32,000 nt of DNA, from the NCBI RefSeq assembly GCF_014280195.1, contig NZ_CP047960.1:60001-92000 (forward strand), written 5' to 3'. Of this stretch, positions 3,235-28,690 are shown one piece after another (within the stretch, counting starts at the first letter, position 1; the number at the start of each line of letters is the position of its first letter). Under the pieces are notes generated by a model. That model had not been told where the DNA came from. It saw only the letters and a list, made by a program, of their open reading frames with translations, and did not search any database. The DNA is from Synechococcus sp. A15-24. Its GTDB lineage: Bacteria > Cyanobacteriota > Cyanobacteriia > PCC-6307 > Cyanobiaceae. The position numbers and the translations under genes were made by a program.

Positions 3235-5037
3235 TCAGCTGTCGAGGGGTGAGGCGCTGCCCTGAGCGGTGTGCTGCTCCTTCCCCCCCAACCCGAAGCC
3301 GGCGTGAACAGCCTGCAGGGCTGCCACACCGTCCTGCTCCGCTACCACGCAGCTGGTGCGGATCTCGCTGGTGGCGATCAGGGCGATGTTGATGCCGGCA
3401 TCAGCCAGGGCACGGAACATCCGGCCTGCGGTCCCGGGGGTGGCGGGCATGCCAGCGCCGACTGCGCTCACCCGGGCGATCGATTCGCCCTCCTCCAACG
3501 CTGCACCGGGCCATTGCGCCAGCAGTGGTGCCAGGGCGACATCCGCGCGGCTGCGGTCCTCCTTGCGCAGGATGAAGCTGATATCCCGCGAGCCGTCGCC
3601 GTGTTGACGCTCCGATTGGACGATCGCATCGAGGCTGATGCCGCGTTCGGCCAGGGCGGAACAGAGGGCAGCGGCGGTGCCGGGGCGGTCCGGTACGTGG
3701 CGCACCGACAGCTGGGCCTGGTCGCGATCGAGGGCAACCCCGCGCACTTCCGGTTCGTCGCTGCTGCTGAGGTCTGGGTTGAGCTCCACCTGCGCATCGG
3801 CCACATCGAAGGCCTCCTGCACTGCCTGCAGCGCCTTGCGACCGGATTCGGCATCGATCACACAGCTCACCTTCACTTCGCTGGTGGCGATCAGGCGCAG
3901 GTTGATGCCCTGCTGCGAGAGGCAGTGGAACAGTCCAGCGGCGATGCCGGGGCGCCCCATGATTCCGGCGCCACTGATGCTCAGCTTGGTCATGCCCCCC
4001 TCAGCGGCCAGCTCGCCACCAAGGCTGTCCAGCACGGTCTGGCTGACGCGACGGGCGGCCTCCAGATCAGCTTCCGCCACGGTGAAGGTGATGTCGTTGC
4101 TGCTGCCCTCGTGGGTGGACTGGATGATCAGATCCACGTTGATGTCAGCGCCCGAGAGGGTTTCGAACAGGCGGGCGGCAATGCCCGGCTGATCCGGGAT
4201 GTGCGATAGCGCGATCACCGCTTGATGGTCCATTTGCTCAACGCCATCGACAGGGCTGCCCAGTTCGAGTCCGGCCTGGTTGAGCGGCCGGCCGCGGCGG
4301 CTGGTGAGGCGGGTGCCGGGGGCTTCGCTCCAGCTCGAGCGCACCACCATCAGCACGCCGTAATTGCGGGCGATCTCCACCGCCCGGGGATGCAGCACAG
4401 AAGCACCGAGGCTGGCCAGCTCGAGCATTTCATCGCAGCTGATCTCATCCATCAGCTGCGCATCGGCCACCTTGCGGGGATCGGTGCTGAGCACTCCCGG
4501 CACGTCGGTGTAGATCTCACAGGCATCGGCGTTCAACGCAGCCGCCAGGGCGACGGCGGAGGTGTCGGAGCCGCCGCGGCCCAGGGTGGTGATCTCAGCC
4601 ACACCGCCAACGCCACTGCTGGTGCCCTGGAAGCCGGCCACCACCACCACACGGCCATCAGCCAGATGGCCGCGAATTCGGTCGGTGCGGATCTCGAGGA
4701 TGCGAGCCCGGCCGTGGGTGGATTCGGTCACGATGCCCACTTGGGGCCCTGTCATCGAGACAGCGGCAACCCCTTGTTGGTTCAGGGCCATGGCCAGCAG
4801 GGCAATGGACACCTGTTCACCGCTGGCCAGCAGCATGTCCATCTCCCGTTGCGGCGGGCTGTTGGTGATGGCGGACGCCAGTCCGGTGAGTTCATCGGTG
4901 GTGTGGCCCATGGCCGACACCACCACCACCACGTCGTGGCCCTCCTCGCGGCTGCGGCTGATCCGCTCGGCCACCGCCTGGATGCGTTCGACACTGCCGA
5001 CGGAGGTGCCGCCGAACTTCTGCACCAGGAGGGCCAT
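3235..5037 (-). CDS. lysC: Aspartate kinase, cyanobacterial long form with duplicated ACT regulatory region
   Basis: MALLVQKFGGTSVGS...VVVVSAMGHTTDEL is the aspartokinase N-terminus. Two similar C-terminal regulatory halves (…ISGAGIMGRPGIAAGLF… and …VSAVGAGMPATPGTAGRMF…) match the tandem ACT-pair architecture of cyanobacterial LysC. I prefer ATG at 5037 over the GTG at 5070 used by the ORF track. Confidence 0.9.
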   Translation of the reverse strand: MALLVQKFGGTSVGSVERIQAVAERISRSREEGHDVVVVVSAMGHTTDELTGLASAITNSPPQREMDMLLASGEQVSIALLAMALNQQGVAAVSMTGPQVGIVTESTHGRARILEIRTDRIRGHLADGRVVVVAGFQGTSSGVGGVAEITTLGRGGSDTSAVALAAALNADACEIYTDVPGVLSTDPRKVADAQLMDEISCDEMLELASLGASVLHPRAVEIARNYGVLMVVRSSWSEAPGTRLTSRRGRPLNQAGLELGSPVDGVEQMDHQAVIALSHIPDQPGIAARLFETLSGADINVDLIIQSTHEGSSNDITFTVAEADLEAARRVSQTVLDSLGGELAAEGGMTKLSISGAGIMGRPGIAAGLFHCLSQQGINLRLIATSEVKVSCVIDAESGRKALQAVQEAFDVADAQVELNPDLSSSDEPEVRGVALDRDQAQLSVRHVPDRPGTAAALCSALAERGISLDAIVQSERQHGDGSRDISFILRKEDRSRADVALAPLLAQWPGAALEEGESIARVSAVGAGMPATPGTAGRMFRALADAGINIALIATSEIRTSCVVAEQDGVAALQAVHAGFGLGGKEQHTAQGSASPLDS

Positions 5038-15310: not shown

Positions 15311-16201
15311 TCAAGGAGCTAGGGCATCTTTCAGGAGTGCTTTGAGGTCCCAGTAGGGCGGTTTTTTGACGGGGATGGCTCGGAGTCTGGTTGGATTAGC
15401 CAAGATTTTTTGAACCAGTGTTTCCAGCTCCTCGATGGAGTTGGCCCAGAACAGATCGGGCCGGTTGACCAGTGGGCTGTTCTGTCCCAGCAGGCTGGGT
15501 TCGCCAAAGATCACCTGGGGCACGCCGGCGGCCATCACTTCAAACAGGCGGTGGTTGAGGTCATGGTTCAAGGGCACATTCAGCACCAAGGCGTGTTGGG
15601 CGTAAAGCCCCGCCGCTTCATTGGCGTTTGAGGTGGTGCAGTGCCGGAACGGCACCTGTTGTCTCTTGAGCAAGCCTTCCACCAGCTCACGGCGCCGGGG
15701 GTGGTGGGGGCCGAGGCTGCCCACGTGCAGCAGCTCAAGCCGTGGGGTTGGGCTGGGTGTGGCAGCTGGATAGCGAAAAAAGGATGGGGCTAAGCAGCGC
15801 ACCGGCATAGGCAAGCGCTGTTGCACGTCGTCCAGCAGCGCCGGATTGAAGGTGAGCAGCACTGCATCGTGTGGCTCAGCCGCGCAGTACTGCTGCAGGG
15901 TGCCGATCGGATCGGGGCCGTGATGGAGATCTCCGCAGACAAGGAGCCGTGGTCCAGGCCATTGGCGGATGCCCCGCATGGGGGCAGCGCGGAGCAGAAA
16001 TGGATCGGTGTACTGAAGCAGCACCCCTTTTGATGCCCATCCCCGGCGCTGTAGCGCGTTGCACAGCCCCGGCACCGACAGCTCGGTCAGCCGCAAACTC
16101 GCGGGCCCATCAGCAATCTGGGGCCCCACCTGAATCAACCCAGGCTGCTGCCAGAGCGGTTGGTAGGCCCCGTGATGGATCAGCAGGGTGGGTGTTCGCA
16201 T
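15311..16201 (-). CDS. GT-B-like glycosyltransferase (CgeB / Glyco_trans_1_2-like C-terminal domain)
   Basis: [28 protein letters not shown] resembles the Glyco_trans_1_2 block (LN...N.R.FE..A.G). ATG at 16201 ([11 protein letters not shown]). The gene itself is well supported by GC-rich codon usage. The function is tentative. Confidence 0.45.
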
Positions 16202-16253
16202 GGCATTGCTTGACCCAGCGATAATTGCGCTTCGTCGTTTGGTCTTGCAACTC

Positions 16254-18287
16254 ATGCCCGCCTACGACCTCACAGCTCCGTATTCCCCCAAGGGCGACCA
16301 GCCCACGGCGATCAAGCAGCTGGTGGCCGGTGTCAATGGCGGGCAGCGCTATCAGACCCTGCTGGGGGCGACGGGCACGGGCAAGACGTTCACGATGGCC
16401 AACGTTATCGCCCAGACCGGACGGCCGGCCCTGGTCTTGGCCCACAACAAAACCCTCGCGGCGCAGCTCTGCAACGAGCTGCGGGAGTTTTTCCCCGAGA
16501 ACGCCGTTGAGTACTTCATCTCCTATTACGACTACTACCAACCGGAGGCCTACGTTCCCGTCAGCGACACCTACATCGCCAAGACGGCGTCGATTAACGA
16601 GGAGATCGACATGTTGCGCCATTCAGCGACGCGCTCGCTGTTTGAACGGCGCGACGTGATCGTGGTGGCCTCGATCAGCTGCATCTACGGCCTGGGTATT
16701 CCGAGTGAATACCTCAAAGCGGCGGTGAAGTTTGAGGTAGGCGAGACCCTCAACATCCGCGGCCAGCTGCGAGAGCTGGTGAACAACCAGTACAGCCGCA
16801 ACGACACCGAGATTGCCCGGGGCCGCTTCCGCATGAAGGGGGACGTGCTGGAGATCGGCCCCGCCTATGAAGACCGGCTGGTGCGGATCGAGTTGTTCGG
16901 CGATGAGGTGGAGGCGATCCGCTACGTGGACCCCACCACTGGCGAGATCCTCCAGAGCCTGGAGGCGGTGAACATCTACCCGGCCAAGCACTTCGTGACG
17001 CCGAAAGACCGGCTGGATACGGCGATCAGTGCCATCCGCTCGGAGCTGCGGGAGCGGCTGGATCTGCTCAACGGCGAGGGCAAGTTGCTGGAGGCTCAGC
17101 GGCTGGAACAGCGCACCAAGTACGACCTGGAGATGCTGGGGCAGGTGGGCTATTGCAACGGGGTGGAGAACTACGCCCGCCATCTTGCTGGCCGCGAGGA
17201 GGGCACGCCGCCTGAGTGCCTGATCGATTACTTCCCCGATGATTGGCTGCTGATCGTGGACGAGAGCCACGTCACCTGCTCCCAATTGCAGGCGATGTAC
17301 AACGGCGACCAGGCTCGCAAGAAGGTGCTGATCGAGCATGGCTTTCGCCTGCCTAGTGCGGCTGACAATCGCCCCCTCAAAGGTGAAGAGTTCTGGGAAA
17401 AGGCGCGGCAAACGGTGTTTGTTTCCGCGACGCCTGGCAACTGGGAGCTAGAGGTGAGCGGCGGTGAGGTGGCGGAGCAGGTGATCCGCCCGACGGGGGT
17501 GCTTGATCCGGTGGTGGAGGTGCGGCCCACCAGCGGCCAGGTGGACGATTTGCTTGGAGAGATCCGCGATCGGGCGGCCAAGAATCAGCGGGTGCTGGTG
17601 ACCACCCTCACCAAGCGAATGGCGGAAGACCTCACCGATTACCTGGCGGAGAACGAGGTGCGGGTGCGCTATCTGCACTCGGAGATCCACTCGATCGAGC
17701 GGATCGAAATCATCCAGGACCTGCGCTTGGGAGAATACGACGTGTTGGTGGGGGTGAACCTGCTGCGGGAGGGTCTGGACTTACCGGAAGTGAGCCTGGT
17801 GGCGATCCTCGATGCCGATAAGGAAGGCTTCCTGCGGGCTGAGCGGTCGTTGATCCAGACCATCGGCCGGGCGGCGCGGCATGTGGAAGGGGTGGCGCTT
17901 CTGTATGCCGACAACATGACCGACTCCATGGCGAAGGCCATCTCAGAAACCGAACGACGTCGGGCGATTCAGCAGGCCCACAACAAGAAGAATGGAATTG
18001 TGCCTACTGCTGCGGGCAAGAAGGCCAGCAACTCGATCCTCAGCTTCCTGGAGCTGAGTCGCAAGCTGAAGCAGGAAGGGCCCGAAGCGGATCTTGTTCA
18101 GGTGGTGGGCAAAGCGGCCAAGGCTCTGGAAGATGATCCCGACGCCAGCCTGGCCCTGGAAGCACTGCCAGAGTTGATCGATCAGCTAGAGGCAAAGATG
18201 AAGGAGGCCGCCAAGAAGCTGGACTTCGAAGAGGCAGCGAACCTGCGGGATCGGGTTAAGCAGCTGCGTCAGAAAATGGCTGGATAG
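16254..18287 (+). CDS. uvrB: Excinuclease ABC subunit B
   Basis: [23 protein letters not shown], Walker [10 protein letters not shown], helicase motifs and the C-terminal UVR domain ([15 protein letters not shown]). ATG at 16254, TAG at 18285-18287. Confidence 0.95.
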
Positions 18288-18417: not shown

Positions 18418-19473
18418 TCAACTGTAAATTTGCAAAATACTTCTTAGCGAATCAACTATCTTAAAACATAAATTATTGATTTGATTTTTTGAGGCAATAG
18501 ATGGCGACGAATAAATATCAAAAAATTTAGATCCAAATTCTTTTATCTCGAGCATACTTTTGCGGATGTCCATAGATGACGAAACATTAAATATCAAAGG
18601 ATGATTTGCAAATGGTTCGTTTGTTAAGCACCCAAAATAAAGTGATATGCATCCAGAAATTAAGGAGTGAGGTAATTTTTCTGTAACGTAGCCAGGATGA
18701 AAAGAATTTTCAAAGCATAAGCTGTATTTATAGTTTTTCAAAAGATCAAATTTATTACCCACCGGGTTAGTATGACTACCAAATCGATCGACTTGAAATC
18801 CAAAGTCTATCAGTTGATTTAGAAAATATTCTCTAAATGGTTCAGCATTATTTCCGATAAAAGCGACGGCGTCTTTTCGTTTTGAGAAATCAACAGACTG
18901 TTCTGAATGGAAAATTTTCTTTTGCAAAGGATTTCTATCATCATAGGACTTATTGAATAAATCAATCTCAAAAAGCCAGAGGGGCATATAAATAATACGA
19001 TTGCAACTTGTAAATTGATCAAATCCAGCAGAATAATCAAAATTAAGAAAATTGGGCCTAACATTCTCACCTAGAAATAAAATTTGCGTAGCATTACTGG
19101 GAAGCACAAGATATTGACCGTAGCAAGATGAGAAATTAATATCAGTATCAGGGGATGAAGGAATAATATTAATCTGGAGATTTTTATCAATTACAGCTAA
19201 TCTTATAAAATCTAAAATTTGATTGTCGATACAATTGAAGTCTGGCCAAAACCCCTCGAATGATATATTGATGCAATCTGTCTTGCGACTTAAAATATGC
19301 TTTAACCTTGATTTTTGACGGGTCCAATACTTATTTTGGCTAGAATTGCAATACTTGTCAATATTTGATATTGCATTCCTATAGTCATGCTTAATAAGCG
19401 AATATTCATGTTTAATCGAGTGGTCTTCTAAGCCAATTTGAGAACCTGGAGAATGCCATTGTCGTTGAAACAT
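18418..19473 (-). CDS. GT10-family alpha-1,3-fucosyltransferase-like glycosyltransferase
   Basis: YKYSLCFENSFHPGYVTEKLPHSLISGCISLYFG matches the GT10 signature (FENS....YxTEK). ATG at 19473 shares one base with the upstream TAA (TAATG). The ORF track start at 19485 is a TTG. Confidence 0.75.
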   Translation of the reverse strand: MFQRQWHSPGSQIGLEDHSIKHEYSLIKHDYRNAISNIDKYCNSSQNKYWTRQKSRLKHILSRKTDCINISFEGFWPDFNCIDNQILDFIRLAVIDKNLQINIIPSSPDTDINFSSCYGQYLVLPSNATQILFLGENVRPNFLNFDYSAGFDQFTSCNRIIYMPLWLFEIDLFNKSYDDRNPLQKKIFHSEQSVDFSKRKDAVAFIGNNAEPFREYFLNQLIDFGFQVDRFGSHTNPVGNKFDLLKNYKYSLCFENSFHPGYVTEKLPHSLISGCISLYFGCLTNEPFANHPLIFNVSSSMDIRKSMLEIKEFGSKFFDIYSSPSIASKNQINNLCFKIVDSLRSILQIYS

Positions 19474-20270
19474 TAGTCCCTCCAACTTTGATAGCTTACT
19501 GTTTCACTACCGTGAAGATATAAGGTTTTTTGCATCCAATAACAAGAAATTGGCATATTTGAATATTTATATAAAATGTACTGCAACTGCCAATCAATTG
19601 GGAAGCATAGAGGTAGATATTTTTGTACAATAATCTTAGCTAATCTCTTGGAGACGACATATCCCGCATTGGTTCTTGTTCTGGGCGGTAATACTTGTAC
19701 AAAAAGTTGAGGTTGAGATGAGTTATCATTTTTACAATGCAATCCTGCTCCCCCTGCAACATCTATATAATCAGGATTTTTTGCATCAATAAATTTTTTA
19801 ACTTCATTAAAGAGCTCAAGAGTATCTGGTTGCTCAAGGATGTCATCTTCAGCAATTAAACCATGACTTTCTTTGCCCTCTGCGATGTGTAAAAGTGCAC
19901 AATAGTGCTTTAAAAGAACACTAATTTCACCCGGCGACAAAATCCTTGATAAGAGCCATTTAGGCAAATTTAAAACATCTTCGTTGGATATATTGAGGAA
20001 AAAAGTCTTTGTTTTTTTGACATAGGTGGAGGAGTTGCTTATATAGTCTCCTTGTGAATTGGCATTGTCAATTAATATTGGGGATAATTCTAGTATTCGA
20101 GACTTCCAAAGTTCACAGTTTCCCAGAGTAAGGCCATCAGAAATTATTTCAGATGAATCAAATATCCTAATAATTTGAATAGACTCAGGATGAAAATTTT
20201 TTTGGAGGAGGCCTACAGCATTCGGCAATCTAGTCTGCGTTGCAGAACAAGTAATTAAAAAGGCCTTCAT
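19473..20270 (-). CDS. GT25-family (LOS/LPS beta-glycosyltransferase-like) protein
   Basis: The N-terminus MKAFLITCSATQTRL together with LSPGEISVLLKHYCALLHIAEGKESHGLIAEDDI parallels the GT25 blocks (MK..VI.L..S..R and LS.GE.GC.LSH...W...IlEDD). Confidence 0.55.
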   Translation of the reverse strand: MKAFLITCSATQTRLPNAVGLLQKNFHPESIQIIRIFDSSEIISDGLTLGNCELWKSRILELSPILIDNANSQGDYISNSSTYVKKTKTFFLNISNEDVLNLPKWLLSRILSPGEISVLLKHYCALLHIAEGKESHGLIAEDDILEQPDTLELFNEVKKFIDAKNPDYIDVAGGAGLHCKNDNSSQPQLFVQVLPPRTRTNAGYVVSKRLAKIIVQKYLPLCFPIDWQLQYILYKYSNMPISCYWMQKTLYLHGSETVSYQSWRD

Positions 20271-20500: not shown

Positions 20501-21478
20501 TTGGGCATCTGTTTCTTACATAAGCACAAAACGGGCGGATCAACACTTGAGAATACATTAAAACTTGATAGTTTGGGATGTAAGTACCTAAGTGAACTAG
20601 ATCCAAAGCTTGTAGAAAAAGATCTAATTATTGAGTTAAGAAAAAAACCAATTACGATAGTAAACGCATATGCAAGATCGCTGAAGCAAAGTCTCGGAAG
20701 TTATTGGCCTGAGTATAAAGAAACTACTACATTTTTATTTACAATAAGGAATCCAATTTCATTATTTGAAAGTGATTGGCAATATCAACATCAACTTGGA
20801 ACAAGTTCAAAATTTAAGAGTACTCACTTGCCACATGATCCTATGATAAAAAAGATATTTAGTGGAAATGATTGGCAAGAAATAATGTGTGATTATCTTG
20901 AACGCGATATTTCGAATCGTATTGATATAAATTCTTATTGTGAGCTGTTGGTTGGACAAAGGGAATCCGAAGAAGATGATATTTATAATACATTCTCATT
21001 GGGGATTGCAAAAGAGACAAGTGAACATTTTTGGATGCATAGTAATAGTTTCTACAGGCCGACTTTTTCATGTGGAGCATTTAACAACCAATGGAATACA
21101 ATAAGAACTCATTTTGGAGAAGATATTTTCGACATTAAACCCTTGCAAGGACAAAAGTCTCAAGTATATTTTTTGCCAACAGAATTAATAAACATAGCAT
21201 TGCCGTTTTATTTGCTGCACGATGCTAACCTTCGTCAGTTCTTTAAAAAAATGGATTTAAATAACCCTAGTCTAGAACTAATATCTGAAGCAATCGCAAG
21301 TCTTAGAAAGAATACAACGCGAAGTGAATTTAAAAGCGATAAAACAATGAAATTAAACCCTAAGAACAGATTAAGCTACTATAAATACTCAGATAAAGAC
21401 TACAAGATTTGGACTTCGTCGATTTCAATTTTAGCATCATTATTCAATCAATCAAACCATATCTTGAAAAGTCAGTGA
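20501..21478 (+). CDS. Sulfotransferase-like protein, paralogue 1
   Basis: FLHKHKTGGSTL is a PAPS 5'-phosphosulfate-binding loop of the HIPKTGG(T/S) type. FTIRNPISLFESDW is a 3'-phosphate RNPxxRxxS-type block. It is collinear with 27725..28690. The apparent start is TTG at 20501, and an upstream ATG at 20466 is out of frame. Confidence 0.6.
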   Translation: MGICFLHKHKTGGSTLENTLKLDSLGCKYLSELDPKLVEKDLIIELRKKPITIVNAYARSLKQSLGSYWPEYKETTTFLFTIRNPISLFESDWQYQHQLGTSSKFKSTHLPHDPMIKKIFSGNDWQEIMCDYLERDISNRIDINSYCELLVGQRESEEDDIYNTFSLGIAKETSEHFWMHSNSFYRPTFSCGAFNNQWNTIRTHFGEDIFDIKPLQGQKSQVYFLPTELINIALPFYLLHDANLRQFFKKMDLNNPSLELISEAIASLRKNTTRSEFKSDKTMKLNPKNRLSYYKYSDKDYKIWTSSISILASLFNQSNHILKSQ

Positions 21479-22550
21479 GACTGTAACTTTTATCATCGAT
21501 ATATTTAACGTTAGTTCCCCATGGCTTCCCGACTTGAATTTCATCATAGGGTATTTGATGCTTATTCAGCCATTTTATGAGTTGAGGCAAAGTGTACTTG
21601 TTAATTAAACCAATATTAGATTGAAATGAACGCATATTTCTGGAAGTAAAAAGTATGATATATGAACCCATTTTATCAGCCCTTTGAAGTGCTTCACAAT
21701 GTTCTTTGATAGGAATTGCATCAGAATAATTCTTAGTTTCTGTCAATGTACAAAGGGTTTCATCGATATCAACAACCAAAGTTTCTCTTTGAAAGCCAGT
21801 TATCGAACTGTTAGCAGAGATGAGTTCGTTCATATTTATGTCAAAGGTCTTACATAAGTCATAGGGGGTCCCAAATAATTTAGGCTTTTTGGCTTGTGAA
21901 AGCTGAACAATAAAGCCTTTCTGAATCATATAATTAAGAAAAGGTGCTATGTAGCGTTCGGAAAATCCTGAATGGTCTTCGTATTCTGAAAGAAGATTCT
22001 TAAAATCTAAAACGCTAGAAAAAGCATATGTACCAATAGAGCAAAAGTTAGAGATTCGTTTTTTTTCAACTATTTCAATGATAATATTTGAATCTTCACT
22101 TGATGGCTTTGCAAAAGACCAATGATCTCCTTCACCTATAAAACATGGTACTAAAGAAGAGATTGCAGAATTAGATTGTGAGAAATCTTTAAATAAATTA
22201 CCGGCTTCAAAATAAGTGTCGCAATTATGGACAACAAACTCATTTTGAATGTCAAAAGTATTGATTGTCAATAAAGTAGTATCCAACTGCCCAGGCGTGA
22301 GGTTATCAATTTCTAGCCAATAGATCTTGGCACCATTAACAATATGCCTTAAACTTTTTTCCAAATACTTTTTTACAAAATCACGCTTTAATGTCGTTAT
22401 AAAAATTTGATCGCTGGAAGTATAATTAAAAGATTCGACACTATATTCTAACAAGGTTTTCCCTTTTGCTTTTATTAACGGTTTTGGAGGCTTTATTCCC
22501 TTATTTTTAAATCTTGATCCTTGACCAGCTGCAGTAAAGATGTAATTCAT
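21444..22550 (-). CDS. Fusion protein: sugar-phosphate nucleotidyltransferase (N-terminal) plus HAD-type phosphatase (C-terminal)
   Basis: N-terminus: MNYIFTAAGQGSRF...KPLIKAKGKTLLEY carries the GxGxR and KPL NTase signature. C-terminus: VVDIDETLCT (DxDxT), ILFTSRN, VGKPWG and YIDDKS correspond to HAD motifs I-IV. ATG at 22550 lies 4 nt after the upstream stop. Confidence 0.7.
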   Translation of the reverse strand: MNYIFTAAGQGSRFKNKGIKPPKPLIKAKGKTLLEYSVESFNYTSSDQIFITTLKRDFVKKYLEKSLRHIVNGAKIYWLEIDNLTPGQLDTTLLTINTFDIQNEFVVHNCDTYFEAGNLFKDFSQSNSAISSLVPCFIGEGDHWSFAKPSSEDSNIIIEIVEKKRISNFCSIGTYAFSSVLDFKNLLSEYEDHSGFSERYIAPFLNYMIQKGFIVQLSQAKKPKLFGTPYDLCKTFDINMNELISANSSITGFQRETLVVDIDETLCTLTETKNYSDAIPIKEHCEALQRADKMGSYIILFTSRNMRSFQSNIGLINKYTLPQLIKWLNKHQIPYDEIQVGKPWGTNVKYIDDKSYSLTDFSRYGLID

Positions 22551-22554
22551 GGTT

Positions 22555-24204
22555 TTATTGAAGTAAGTCAATATTACCACGAAGGTAGTAAGTGCTTCCT
22601 ATTAGAGCAAAAGCTAAGCATCGAAGTTCATTCTCAGCATGCAAAGGAATCATGCTAAAGAATAGACTGGAAGTGATGACTCTAAGATCATCATGGTTTA
22701 TTACTTTATTGATAAAAATGTTGTTAAATATACTCTGAATGATCGCATGATTTTGCGGCGAATATATTTTAATATTAATACTGCTCTCATTGATATGTAT
22801 GGAAAATAAATTGTTCACGATTGAGTCGTACAAGCATGTGACAGAATGATTAATTTTACAGATGTCGTATCGTGGGTCAATATTACTTTGATTTCTATTG
22901 TCAATCCCACTCCCTCTTGGGTCAATAATTTTTACTGCCCCAAATATGGGGTCAACAAGAATATTATTAAAGCAAAAATCTCCATGTCCTTTATATAGAT
23001 CTATCGGCTTTGAGTAACTTACAAGTTCATTGGCTAAATTATGACAGATGTCGTTTATAGAGCATGGTAATTGAACACCGTTAATGTTCAGTATTTTATG
23101 CCAAGAATTTGAAAGTATACGATATTTATTGCCTGTAAAAATATTAGACATTGATATCAATCGATTGTTGAATTTTTCATGGTATAAGTGCTTAGGACTA
23201 TCAAAAGCGACTGGTTTCTTATAAAGGAGATCAAAGGCCCTTTTAAGAGCAAGACAAATTTGTTGCCATGAAGCAGGTCCAAATTTTTTGAAGAGAAAAA
23301 TCTCTGACAATGACGGGTATGGAATATATTCTAATTCTAGATAATACTTCCCATTAGCATCATCAAGGTAGTGATTGATAAGCTGTGGATAAAATTGTCT
23401 AAGCCCCTTATCAAGCTCATTGAAATAATTAGCCTCTCTCTGCAGTTTTTCGACATTTGATGAGCATTTAATGAGTGTATTGCTAGATTTTTTATATTCT
23501 ATATTATTAAATTGACGGGATGTGAAGACGTGCTTTGATGCTGTAGTGAATGTTGATTCATGTCCAATATCAATCCACTTTGAATAAATTATCTTTGCCG
23601 CGTTATTCTTGAATAAAGATTGAGCAAGTTGGTTGATATCGTTGTATAGGCTTTTGTCAAGACCAGCCATTGCGCATAAAAGATCTTTTCTATGAGAAAC
23701 TATAATACCGGTAAATGGGTGGCTAGGTTGAGAACTTATGGGTTCATTCTTTCCAATAAATTCAATGGCTAGATTGTCTTCGATTAGGGCAGACCAATTT
23801 TCTTTTGGGATCGATTCTTCGCCATAAACTATTGAAGGAATATCTAATTCATCGAATTTATATGTTGGAATTGTGGTGATTGGATTAACAATTATAATAT
23901 CACTCGACAAGTCACGTATCGTCCTCTCTAAAGTTTCTAATGGTGCTAAAGTTATGCCTATTGACTTAATATTGACCTTGCAAAAAGCCCTGAATGAGTG
24001 AAAAGGATGTTCATCATTTACTGCTAGTATTATATTAGAAATTCCTTTTTCAATATAAAAATTAGCAATTTTTTCAACTACAAGGCTATGACCTATATTC
24101 AACATAAATATTTCTTCATTTGACGAATTCATGTATGCAGGTGGATTTTTAATGGACCCTGCACCAAGAATTACTACGCATGATTTATGGAACAATTGAT
24201 CCAC
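22555..24204 (-). CDS. Fusion protein: degenerate NTase-like N-domain plus APH/choline-kinase-fold small-molecule kinase
   Basis: C-terminal half: LYKGHGDFCFNNILVD is the HGDxxxxN catalytic loop and VKIIDPRG the metal-binding Asp. N-terminal half: VVILGAGS... plus an alternating beta/alpha pattern resembles a GT-A/NTase fold, but the GxGxR signature is absent. GTG start at 24204. Confidence 0.6.
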   Translation of the reverse strand: MDQLFHKSCVVILGAGSIKNPPAYMNSSNEEIFMLNIGHSLVVEKIANFYIEKGISNIILAVNDEHPFHSFRAFCKVNIKSIGITLAPLETLERTIRDLSSDIIIVNPITTIPTYKFDELDIPSIVYGEESIPKENWSALIEDNLAIEFIGKNEPISSQPSHPFTGIIVSHRKDLLCAMAGLDKSLYNDINQLAQSLFKNNAAKIIYSKWIDIGHESTFTTASKHVFTSRQFNNIEYKKSSNTLIKCSSNVEKLQREANYFNELDKGLRQFYPQLINHYLDDANGKYYLELEYIPYPSLSEIFLFKKFGPASWQQICLALKRAFDLLYKKPVAFDSPKHLYHEKFNNRLISMSNIFTGNKYRILSNSWHKILNINGVQLPCSINDICHNLANELVSYSKPIDLYKGHGDFCFNNILVDPIFGAVKIIDPRGSGIDNRNQSNIDPRYDICKINHSVTCLYDSIVNNLFSIHINESSINIKIYSPQNHAIIQSIFNNIFINKVINHDDLRVITSSLFFSMIPLHAENELRCLAFALIGSTYYLRGNIDLLQ

Positions 24205-24209
24205 GAGTA

Positions 24210-24686
24210 TTAAAAGAGATCAATAAAGGAATTAAAAAAATTTTCATCACCCTCTTTTAGGTAATTTGTAAATCCGCAAGATAAGAAAAGATTCTTCGAT
24301 GCAATATTCTGTTTATATCCTTTAGCCCATATTCTTGCCGGTTTTCTGATAATTCTTGTTTGAGCATAGGTCAGCAATTTCTTGCCTAGCCCTTTCTTCC
24401 TATGAGCGGAGTGGATACATACACTTGGCTCAAAATTTGAGGTATAATTATTGTCCATCTCTATATTTTTTAGCCTAAAAAATCCTACGACTGCCCTGTA
24501 TCCCTTGGAATTAAGTTCACAAATTGAATACTCACTGATTCTTTGGCTTACATACTCAAAGTGATCTTCAGGACACGGTATTTCCTTTTTTTCAAACATC
24601 AATAAGTTATCCTGAGAGTATCTTAAATTATATATATCCCAAATATCTTTTAAACTTGCGTTCCTGACTCCATATGTAGTCCCCAT
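24210..24686 (-). CDS. GNAT-family acetyltransferase
   Basis: IHSAHRKKGLGKKLLTYA is the RxxGxG/A acetyl-CoA motif, followed by the C-terminal NIASKNLFLSCGF. ATG at 24686. The stop lies 5 nt before the kinase gene start. Confidence 0.65.
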   Translation of the reverse strand: MGTTYGVRNASLKDIWDIYNLRYSQDNLLMFEKKEIPCPEDHFEYVSQRISEYSICELNSKGYRAVVGFFRLKNIEMDNNYTSNFEPSVCIHSAHRKKGLGKKLLTYAQTRIIRKPARIWAKGYKQNIASKNLFLSCGFTNYLKEGDENFFNSFIDLF

Positions 24687-24723
24687 CAAATGATAAACTC
24701 ATTACATCGACAACCTATCATAA

Positions 24724-27724: not shown

Positions 27725-28690
27725 ATGAAGCGGCTTATTTTTTTACATATCGGCAAGACTGGGGGCGCTACTCTTGACGAAATGCTTAATAAGAAAAAGA
27801 AGAGGTTTGAGTTATCAGGGCAGATAACCCATATTGACCCACAAGAGATATGTCAAAGACTTTTTGAGTCAGAGATTATTGTTATTCATGGATTTCCCTA
27901 TAACATTAAGTCTATGATTGGAGAAAAATTATGGAATAATTTGGTGGAAGCTTCATATCGTCTATGCATTTTTCGTAATCCACTTGATAGAATAGTCAGT
28001 GAATGGAAATTTGCATATCAGAAGCAAAGCCAATTTTCACTACCCTTTATCCCCTACATAAAAAGTATGAATATAGATCAATTAACCTCACCAGTTGATT
28101 CTGGGAATTTCTTTCCTGGTTATTTCGGTCAACCTGAAACTGACCAAATCTGCTTGGATGATTGGCTAACATTTTATAGTCAAACAAGTCCTAAACATTT
28201 TAGTGAAGCAAAACAATCGCTTTTTAATGATGAGAATAAATCATTTACTTCTATTTACTACTCTTCTGCAAGTTTAAAAAACTCTGAAATGTCACTAGGG
28301 TTTAATTTATCCCGCAATATTCAATACTCTATTCTCTCTCATCACTTTGGACTTGATTTCATTTCAGAACCACGACCAAATAAAGATATCTTGCTTACCA
28401 CAGAATTAATGACTCGTTCACTTTCTTCACTGTTGACTAGGGATTCCGATTTTCGCAACTTTTTTGAGCCGATAAGATCCGATGGAAATCCAACATATAG
28501 AAATTCTATTGATTTTATACGTAAACATTCAAAGAATGTCACCAAGGTCTCCGACGATTCTCAACAACTGTTTCATGTATCACCACAAAATAAAATAAAG
28601 TTTTTTCAGGAGAATCATATTGATTATACTATATGGCAATCAACAAATATCCATCAACTCAAGTCGCTCTCTGATTTAACATTATTTTAG
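27725..28690 (+). CDS. Sulfotransferase-like protein, paralogue 2
   Basis: MKRLIFLHIGKTGGATL is the 5'-PSB loop and CIFRNPLDRIVSEW the 3'-PB block. It shares LTTELM, FRNFF and DYTIW blocks with paralogue 1 (LPTELI, LRQFF, DYKIW). The two are of similar length (321 versus 325 aa). Confidence 0.65.
   Translation: MKRLIFLHIGKTGGATLDEMLNKKKKRFELSGQITHIDPQEICQRLFESEIIVIHGFPYNIKSMIGEKLWNNLVEASYRLCIFRNPLDRIVSEWKFAYQKQSQFSLPFIPYIKSMNIDQLTSPVDSGNFFPGYFGQPETDQICLDDWLTFYSQTSPKHFSEAKQSLFNDENKSFTSIYYSSASLKNSEMSLGFNLSRNIQYSILSHHFGLDFISEPRPNKDILLTTELMTRSLSSLLTRDSDFRNFFEPIRSDGNPTYRNSIDFIRKHSKNVTKVSDDSQQLFHVSPQNKIKFFQENHIDYTIWQSTNIHQLKSLSDLTLF

Follow-up and report, generated by a model that had tools for sequence, protein, structure and literature searches.

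The subject of this study is a pair of neighbouring genes in a 32,000-nucleotide stretch of the Synechococcus sp. A15-24 genome (contig NZ_CP047960.1, positions 60,001 to 92,000 of the forward strand; hereafter the window, numbered from its first letter). Both genes lie on the minus strand in DNA with a guanine-plus-cytosine (GC) content of 33%. The gene at 22555..24204, which starts with GTG, encodes a 549-aa protein in which a degenerate domain of nucleotidyltransferase (NTase) fold precedes a predicted sugar or sugar phosphate kinase of the APH fold. The gene at 21444..22550 encodes a 368-aa protein that joins a predicted sugar-1-phosphate NTase to a HAD phosphatase; we read it from its ATG, and the mechanically called open reading frame (ORF) runs on to a GTG at 22580. 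Only 4 nt separate the stop codon of the first gene from the ATG of the second. A GNAT acetyltransferase gene (24210..24689, minus strand; Pfam Acetyltransf_1, 3.3e-8) ends 5 nt before the start of the 549-aa gene and is probably co-transcribed with it. An original prediction, made from the sequence alone, had described three minus-strand genes packed 4–5 nt apart, and this layout is accurate. Every motif quoted there is also present: HGDFCFNN and IIDPRG in the 549-aa protein, and AAGQGSRF...KPL, DIDET, TSR, GKP and DD in the 368-aa protein. They are beyond chance, being found in ORFs of 549 and 368 codons, in proteins with more than 100 full-length homologues each (mainly from marine metagenomes and picocyanobacteria), and being invariant across 70 and 59 aligned homologues, respectively.

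Each of the two proteins has a database entry of 100% identity. The NCBI annotation of the kinase protein gives it 525 aa, starting at Met25, a choice that would remove the first β-strand, VVILGAG. That strand (24130-24204, with the GTG at 24204) is conserved in all homologues. We prefer the 549-aa start because the homologues align from residue 1 of this longer form, and the deposited start is probably wrong.

Pfam and NCBIfam returned no hit for the 549-aa protein and a PDB sequence search returned nothing, so that the fold assignment rests on structure and motifs. An AlphaFold (AF2) model, calculated from a 70-sequence alignment, has two domains (predicted local distance difference test score, pLDDT, 91.5; predicted template modelling score, pTM, 0.91). 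Foldseek comparison with the PDB matches the C-terminal part to aminoglycoside phosphotransferases. This domain of APH / eukaryotic-like-kinase fold spans residues 226-549 (22555..23529, minus strand). Modelled alone it reaches a pLDDT of 92.8, and its top Foldseek matches (E 3e-6 to 2e-5) are the mycobacterial maltokinase 4u94, APH(3')-Ia/VIII, APH(2'') and the glucosamine kinase 6hwl. Maltokinase is an anomeric sugar kinase. The catalytic loop HGDFCFNN (H407-G-D409-F-C-F-N-N414) is encoded at 22963..22986 and the Mg-binding I427-D428-P429 of IIDPRG at 22918-22926, both on the minus strand; K246, H407, G408, D409, N413, N414, I427, D428 and P429 are invariant in the 70 homologues. The fold matches and the aligned residues confirm the original assignment of the C-terminal domain as an APH-fold kinase. 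Profile libraries scarcely register it. PF01636 finds no match in the window protein, a few homologues have a precomputed hit, and the Vibrio mimicus orthologue reaches 20.3 bits where the cut-off is 23.2. When the family profile was compared with the PDB, it gave marginal APH and IspD matches only (IspD E 0.18).

The N-terminal domain (residues 1-225; 23530..24204, minus strand) has the sugar-nucleotidyltransferase fold with a degenerate NTP-binding loop. Foldseek matches it to RmlA (3hl3), KdsB (2y6p), IspD, GlmU and HddC at E ~1e-7. Residues 17-33, which follow the first strand (consensus LILAAG) and correspond to the GxGxR...K site, are unconserved in the picocyanobacterial alignment. A domain resembling an NTase or GT-A transferase but lacking GxGxR had been predicted, and that description holds. 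Further along, the sequence INPITTIP aligns where other family lineages have GDT, a position that we read as the canonical catalytic G-D of NTases. GDT is kept in many lineages, and (N/I)P(I/V)TT(I/V)P stands in its place in picocyanobacteria and Verrucomicrobiota. The domain has conserved motifs of its own at E135/W137, F164-T-G166, D189 and W210-x-D212-x-G-H215, of which we take the first, second and fourth to be on the sugar-binding side. P108, W137, G166, D189, W210, D212 and H215 are invariant in the 70 homologues; no DxD motif is conserved in the domain.

The 368-aa protein is more readily recognized. Its residues 5-216 match PDB 4evw, a Vibrio cholerae 'nucleoside-diphosphate-sugar pyrophosphorylase', at 1.8e-24, and the stretch 257-365 is matched by 1xpj, a HAD protein of the same species, at 2.1e-24, with a further match to 9iqw. 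The NTase domain (residues 1 to ~250; 21801..22550, minus strand) carries G9-x-G11-x-R13...K20/K23, D111 and E162-K163, with GQGSR encoded at 22512-22526. The phosphatase domain (residues ~251-368; 21444..21800, minus strand) is of the 1XPJ / EcbF-BcbF type, with DIDET at 21756-21770. G9, G11, R13, K20, K23, D111, E162 and K163 of the NTase, and D261-x-D263-x-T265, T302, K342 and D352-D353 of the phosphatase (motifs I-IV), are invariant in 59 homologues. Both halves look catalytically active; the original prediction had read them as a canonical NTase with a complete HAD motif set. Family models fit less closely. The C-terminal domain matches TIGR01689, 'EcbF-BcbF capsule biosynthesis phosphatase', at 1e-31 (109.5 bits; curated cut-off 162), along with the NCBIfam HAD-IIIC and IIIA models. 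The NTase domain scores 26.2 against the Pfam cut-off of 27 for NTP_transf_3 and 20.2 against 21.2 for NTP_transferase; its NCBIfam matches are Arch_glmU (1e-13), rmlA_long (1.5e-8) and MurU (9.3e-6, 25.6 bits against a cut-off of 250).

The two proteins belong to a large and widespread family. When the profile of the kinase family was run against 1.84 billion cluster representatives (clusters at 50% identity), it retrieved 4,494 members, 3,075 of them at E<=1e-10 and most of them 530–560 aa long. At least 566 relatives turned up when one genome was scanned for each GTDB species, among them representatives from Cyanobacteria, Verrucomicrobiota, Bacteroidota, Vibrio, Aeromonas, Photobacterium, Gastranaerophilales, Thaumarchaeota, Clostridia, Treponema and Akkermansia. 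The median kinase ORF is 546 aa long (77 loci), and the fusion of NTase fold and kinase is therefore general. A survey of gene neighbourhoods, proposed with the original prediction, bears out the expected co-occurrence: in about 75 of 83 distinct loci, drawn from many phyla, the kinase has an NTase of 4evw type and a HAD of 1xpj type as its neighbours. They come in at least four arrangements, namely the two-fusion form of the window, and separate genes in the orders kinase–HAD–NTase, HAD–kinase–NTase and NTase–kinase–HAD. Recurring adjacency through so many orders and fusions is the signature of a functional unit.

Nothing else travels with this unit. After clustering all neighbouring ORFs of the loci we found no conserved fourth or feeder enzyme; the recurrent neighbours are generic (GT2, GT4, GT9 heptosyltransferase, RmlB, Wzm/Wzt and acetyltransferases). 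Five further cyanobacterial contexts have the two genes side by side, amid glycan genes that are wholly different. None of the other genes around the pair in the window, the GNAT gene included, has a homologue in any other locus searched, and the two-gene module is the sole recurring unit in the picocyanobacterial glycan islands that we compared. We considered the GNAT protein as a component of the pathway, for example in an amino-sugar route, and rejected it as a conserved component, since it is absent beside the module in other loci.

Outside the cyanobacteria, too, the unit turns up in glycan loci. V. mimicus has it as a triad (L055, 7282-10896; HAD 126 aa, N-domain/kinase 527 aa, NTase 247 aa) within its lipopolysaccharide (LPS) inner-core cluster, between waaA and wavE/kdkA. 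There the orthologues of 4evw and 1xpj flank the 527-aa gene, and the triad is directly followed by a WavE-family gene (PF07507, 8.6e-125) whose product could be the transferase that uses what the module makes. In the window itself we detected no homologue of WavE. In Escherichia coli NZ_CP042878.1 (L088, 6325-13846) the triad sits in region 2 of a group-2 kps capsule locus, and its NTase is labelled 'glycosyltransferase family 2' yet matches the window NTase at 1e-23. The same kps locus encodes a 1,157-aa Capsule_synth + HAD protein with the look of a multi-domain capsule polymerase. Database labels for the family run from 'hypothetical' through 'GT2' and 'phosphoheptose isomerase' to 'capsule biosynthesis phosphatase', and neither Pfam nor NCBIfam has a model for the kinase protein. 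The label 'phosphoheptose isomerase' is misapplied to the small HAD protein in the phages RB69 (L087, 7709-8095), Enterococcus phage 9183 (L090, 3006-3350) and S-SKS1. A search of the literature on EcbF/BcbF, the wav genes, kfoD/kfoE and bacterial UDP-fructose or UDP-arabinofuranose found no characterized cellular member.

The characterized precedent comes from phages. Phages that arabinosylate 5-hydroxycytosine use a uridine diphosphate (UDP)-arabinofuranose route that is summarized in a recent article (PMC13326640, NAR 2026). By that account, an arabinose-5-phosphate isomerase (RB69 gp55) supplies arabinofuranose-5-phosphate (Araf-5-P). AfhE (from phage HY126; its counterparts are RB69 gp52:53 and DLP3 gp82), in which a C-terminal kinase follows an N-terminal NTase, converts Araf-5-P to Araf-1,5-P2, and AfhF (RB69 gp51; DLP3 gp81), a Mg-dependent HAD enzyme for which 1XPJ is given as the structural match, removes the 5-phosphate to leave Araf-1-P. 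The N-terminal domain of AfhE then makes UDP-Araf from Araf-1-P (PMC13326640, citing He et al. 2026, doi 10.1038/s41589-026-02150-z).

The kinase and the HAD domain of the pair are homologous to these enzymes. The kinase family profile matches RB69 gp52 with an hhalign probability of 95.9% (E 6e-9), and the two kinases, which BLASTP aligns at 5e-4, share HGDxxFxN...IDPRG...YDxAK (the last element also given as YDxxK). The HAD domain matches RB69 gp51 at 2e-7 with 28% identity, and PDB 9iqw ('capsule biosynthesis protein') is identical to gp51 across the aligned stretch. With tblastn, RB69 gp51 and gp52 matched 61 and 51 cellular loci, respectively. Other phage proteins matched by the kinase domain are the NTase-kinase fusions of Enterococcus phage 9183, Ralstonia phage phiRSL1 and Enterobacter phage Q7622; in Synechococcus phage S-SKS1 it matches a standalone kinase. 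The original prediction recognized neither architecture of the pair as characterized; the module does have a precedent, AfhE and AfhF being likewise an NTase-kinase fusion and a 1XPJ-like HAD.

The phage versions vary. S-SKS1 (L089, NC_020851.1, 3568-7106) encodes a 475-aa fusion of an NTase with RibB (DHBP synthase), a standalone 320-aa kinase and a 118-aa HAD protein, followed by a transaldolase and a GT1-like gene; the fusion of the NTase to a domain that consumes ribulose-5-phosphate hints at a different substrate in this phage. In phiRSL1 (L091, 1861-8098) the genes around the module encode a sulfotransferase, an APS kinase and three glycosyltransferases that carry the annotation HMC-glucosyltransferase, and the presence of sulfation genes recalls the surroundings of the module in the window. 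A bacterial metagenome-assembled genome (L030) has, beside a triad of the degenerate-loop kind, a second NTase-kinase protein (3271-4812, minus strand) with the canonical loop QAGGKGTRL...KPK. No other cellular sequence matches RB69 gp52 as well as this second protein (E 4e-22), which makes it a true AfhE-like protein encoded by a cell.

Comparison of the phage and cellular forms suggests what happened to the N-terminal domain. The canonical GxG[ST]R loop is absent from 75 of 76 aligned family members from many phyla, the exception being the AfhE-like paralogue of L030. We compared the window, E. coli, Vibrio and phiRSL1, whose proteins have the degenerate loop, with RB69 and Enterococcus phage 9183. 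Wherever the loop is canonical (RB69 gp53, Enterococcus phage 9183 gp047), no separate NTase is annotated in the gene cluster; wherever it is degenerate (including phiRSL1 ORF236), a canonical GxxSRF...PK NTase is always adjacent or fused to the HAD. Loss of the loop coincides with a separate active NTase in every case checked. The simplest reading of these sequences starts from an ancestral fusion of NTase and kinase, whose NTase activity was lost in the cellular lineage and taken over by a separate NTase. The original prediction missed this: the domain that it saw as NTase-like is a degenerate NTase whose function is apparently supplied by the 368-aa protein. The relic was probably kept for sugar binding or docking, possibly by pairing with the active NTase.

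On balance, and with modest confidence, we read the two proteins as one pathway of three activities that converts an ω-phosphosugar into a nucleoside diphosphate (NDP)-sugar for a glycosyltransferase of the surrounding island. The 549-aa kinase would use ATP to phosphorylate the anomeric hydroxyl, giving a sugar-1,ω-bisphosphate; the HAD domain of the 368-aa protein would strip the ω-phosphate to leave the sugar-1-phosphate; and the N-terminal NTase of the same protein would couple this to a nucleoside triphosphate to yield the NDP-sugar. The N-terminal domain of the 549-aa protein would be a catalytically dead relic of an AfhE-type NTase that binds sugar or serves in docking. We infer the order of kinase, phosphatase and NTase from the phage AfhE/AfhF precedent, and the roles of the individual domains with it. 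The most natural candidate substrates would be furanose phosphates of D-arabino configuration, such as arabinose-5-phosphate or fructose-6-phosphate.

Several observations weigh against this pathway. Identity to the phage enzymes is only about 25–30%, a level that does not fix the substrate. No arabinose-5-phosphate isomerase, sought as a homologue of RB69 gp55 or of E. coli KpsF, was found in the window or in any other of the 84 loci (1.24 Mb); with no conserved feeder enzyme at the loci, a sugar phosphate from central metabolism is suggested as substrate. A set of loci from Synechococcus, Cyanobium and Prochlorococcus (L004, L010-L012, L018), together with phiRSL1 (L091), has no detectable HAD nearby, and in these the N-domain/kinase gene is followed by a standalone NTase of ~250 aa. 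Such loci fit phosphorylation of a free sugar, or a phosphatase encoded elsewhere, better than an obligatory phosphatase. As for the N-terminal domain, hhalign comparison of its family with that of the 368-aa NTase is not significant (probability 0.4%), so we do not claim close paralogy of the two, and a heterodimer of the two NTase-fold domains is pure conjecture. GDT and other invariant residues are kept in the N-terminal domain of many lineages, and the domain may thus have a catalytic or ligand-binding role.

The substrate question also admits a bolder answer, though an unlikely one. The cellular module might not be an arabinose pathway at all but a general route that takes a furanose phosphate from central metabolism, without a dedicated feeder, to an undescribed NDP-furanose, with the pseudo-NTase domain acting as a docking or channelling subunit. 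The most attractive case would be fructose-6-phosphate to fructose-2,6-bisphosphate, fructose-2-phosphate and finally NDP-D-fructofuranose. Fructose is D-arabino-hexulose, the hydroxymethyl analogue of the Araf-5-P substrate, and fructofuranose residues are reported from the LPS core of Vibrio cholerae and in some E. coli and Campylobacter capsules. If the NDP-fructofuranose route were true, it would provide the missing donor for these residues.

The surroundings of the pair are those of a surface-glycan island. The GC content of the window falls from 60–69% to 32–37% near position 18000 and stays low to the window end; the boundary lies at ~18300, directly after uvrB (16188-18287). From this drop we conclude that the pair is part of a horizontally acquired low-GC surface-glycan island beside uvrB. 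A related kinase/NTase pair in Synechococcus sp. MU1617 (L004) likewise lies between uvrB and mutS, and the shared position suggests that the uvrB flank is a recurrent insertion hotspot for glycan islands. Besides the pair and the GNAT gene, the island encodes a GT10 fucosyltransferase (18418-19485, Pfam), a weak GT25-like protein, a GDSL hydrolase, a carbamoyltransferase, a TIGR04372 glycosyltransferase and two paralogous sulfotransferases. One of the latter (20501-21478, plus strand) has no Pfam hit and is recognized by 24% identity over 331 aa (E 1.4e-16) to the Sulfotransfer_2 protein at 27725-28690. This ORF converges with the 368-aa gene, and the two share 35 nt at the 3' end of the ORF. 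Because of the sulfotransferase, carbamoyltransferase, GNAT and GDSL genes, the island product appears to be a heavily decorated glycan that is sulfated, carbamoylated and acylated. No gmd or fcl gene was seen among the island genes scanned. A promoter and terminator scan was uninformative (19 sites against 18.9 expected).

Other explanations of the pair deserve consideration. The same three folds occur in AmgK, MurU and MupP, and the pair could follow the order of those enzymes, with the HAD domain acting first on a sugar-6-phosphate, or with uptake of a free sugar, then phosphorylation at C1 and nucleotidyl transfer. A salvage order of this kind, which underlay the original prediction, would still work in the loci without a HAD gene; moreover, the nearest solved kinase folds, maltokinase and glucosamine kinase, act on unphosphorylated sugars, and the NTase has its weak MurU match. 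We regard it as rather unlikely nevertheless. The sole characterized homologues, AfhE and AfhF, are reported to act kinase first on a sugar-5-phosphate and then phosphatase on the bisphosphate; the HAD domain is a homologue of AfhF of the 1XPJ/TIGR01689 type, whereas MupP is an HAD-IA enzyme; and the MurU score falls far below its cut-off while no AmgK model matched at all. What survives of the salvage proposal is thus a likely NDP-sugar module, given the intact motifs and the linkage, and a parallel with AmgK, MurU and MupP at the level of folds, but not in order, model matches or HAD subfamily. A different objection concerns the N-terminal domain of the 549-aa protein, which might be alive, either as a non-canonical NTase or as a GT-A glycosyltransferase using the NDP-sugar of its partner, so that the pair would have four activities. 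NTases and GT-A transferases share a fold, the domain has invariant residues of its own (the seven given above), it keeps the C-terminal W-x-D-x-G that we read as typical of RmlA-type NTases, and many lineages have GDT at the presumed catalytic Asp position. Such a role seems improbable when the phosphate-binding loop is unconserved in picocyanobacteria, GxGxR is absent in all 75 primary members, GD is replaced by NPITTIP in picocyanobacteria, a separate canonical NTase is present in every case examined, and a conserved DxD is lacking.

The pairing of an APH-fold kinase with an NTase also recalls LicA and LicC, and the kinase could act on choline, ethanolamine, an alditol or glycerate for the NTase to make a CDP-activated head group that decorates the glycan. 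The marginal IspD profile match and the many decorating enzymes of the island (sulfotransferases, carbamoyltransferase, GNAT, GDSL hydrolase) would suit this idea, which is very improbable all the same: it leaves no role for a phosphatase whose linkage is conserved in about 75 of 83 loci, sugar-1-phosphate NTases (4evw, Arch_glmU, rmlA_long) are the nearest relatives of the active NTase, and the closest characterized relative of the kinase is reported to act on a pentose phosphate. The original prediction had further raised an analogue of FKP that would make GDP-L-fucose for the neighbouring GT10 fucosyltransferase. That gene lies in the same island, which among the genes scanned has no gmd or fcl, but almost nothing else speaks for fucose and we give the idea scarcely any credence. 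GT10 and the other island genes do not recur beside the module in any other locus searched. Two related Prochlorococcus-type loci (L003, L006) have manC and GDP-mannose-dehydratase/epimerase genes beside the module, so that a de novo route to a GDP-deoxyhexose coexists with it. Fucose, being a 6-deoxy sugar, could not carry the ω-phosphate that would justify the invariant HAD domain. Finally, the kinase is of APH fold, and there is no similarity to GHMP kinases or to the FKP pyrophosphorylase.

We return to the kinase–phosphatase–NTase pathway. The functional sketch in the original prediction was broadly right: with catalytic motifs intact and genes linked across many genomes, the product of the module is most likely an NDP-sugar destined for a surface glycan. 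From sequence comparison, phage AfhE/AfhF have a large and unnamed family of cellular relatives, of which the module is the fused version found in picocyanobacteria. Relative to those phage enzymes, the new features are the apparent pseudo-NTase domain complemented in trans, the joining of NTase and HAD in one protein, the lack of an arabinose feeder and the location in surface-glycan loci. The link to AfhE/AfhF gives a concrete, testable mechanism and indicates an NDP-sugar route that is absent from bacterial glycan annotation. In marine picocyanobacteria, low-GC islands for surface glycans are hypervariable, and they are thought to influence how susceptible the cells are to phages and grazers. 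The 549-aa protein would also be a clean example of a catalytic domain that has become a pseudo-enzyme, its function having moved to a neighbouring gene.

How does the module compare with known systems? It shares with AfhE/AfhF an NTase-fold N-terminal domain followed by a C-terminal kinase, and a 1XPJ-like HAD, the gene products being encoded side by side; by analogy with the phage route, the end product would be an NDP-sugar for a glycosyltransferase. It differs in that the N-terminal domain of AfhE has a canonical GxGTR...K loop and is reported to be the active NTase, whereas the loop of the window domain is degenerate and the predicted active NTase, of 4evw type, is fused to the HAD. The phage NTase, which is MurU-like, is not close to the cellular NTase (E 0.03). 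Phage clusters include an arabinose-5-phosphate isomerase and cellular loci do not, and the target is DNA in the phages but would be a surface glycan for the module of the window.

The NDP-heptose pathway, which comprises GmhA, the kinase HldE or HddA, the phosphatase GmhB and the NTase HldE/HldC or HddC, follows the logic that we propose for the module, from sugar-ω-phosphate through anomeric kinase, 1,ω-bisphosphate, HAD phosphatase and sugar-1-phosphate to NTase. HldE is also a kinase-NTase fusion, and HddC is among the fold matches of the N-terminal domain. However, heptose kinases have the ribokinase or GHMP fold and the window kinase the APH fold, GmhB is an HAD-IIIA enzyme, and no GmhA/SIS isomerase is linked to the module. 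The AmgK, MurU and MupP enzymes of Pseudomonas peptidoglycan recycling similarly combine an APH-like anomeric kinase, a small sugar-1-phosphate NTase and a HAD phosphatase to make an NDP-sugar, but act in the order phosphatase, kinase, NTase on a free sugar, are encoded by unfused genes and include, in MupP, a phosphatase of another HAD subfamily. Each half of the 368-aa protein has direct relatives by sequence in the V. cholerae proteins 4evw and 1xpj, with TIGR01689; 4evw and 1xpj are separate proteins rather than a fusion. Finally, GMPPA/GMPPB and the large and small subunits of ADP-glucose pyrophosphorylase offer a functional analogy only, in that a loop-less NTase fold is kept next to an active NTase; in the window the putative dead domain is instead fused to a kinase.

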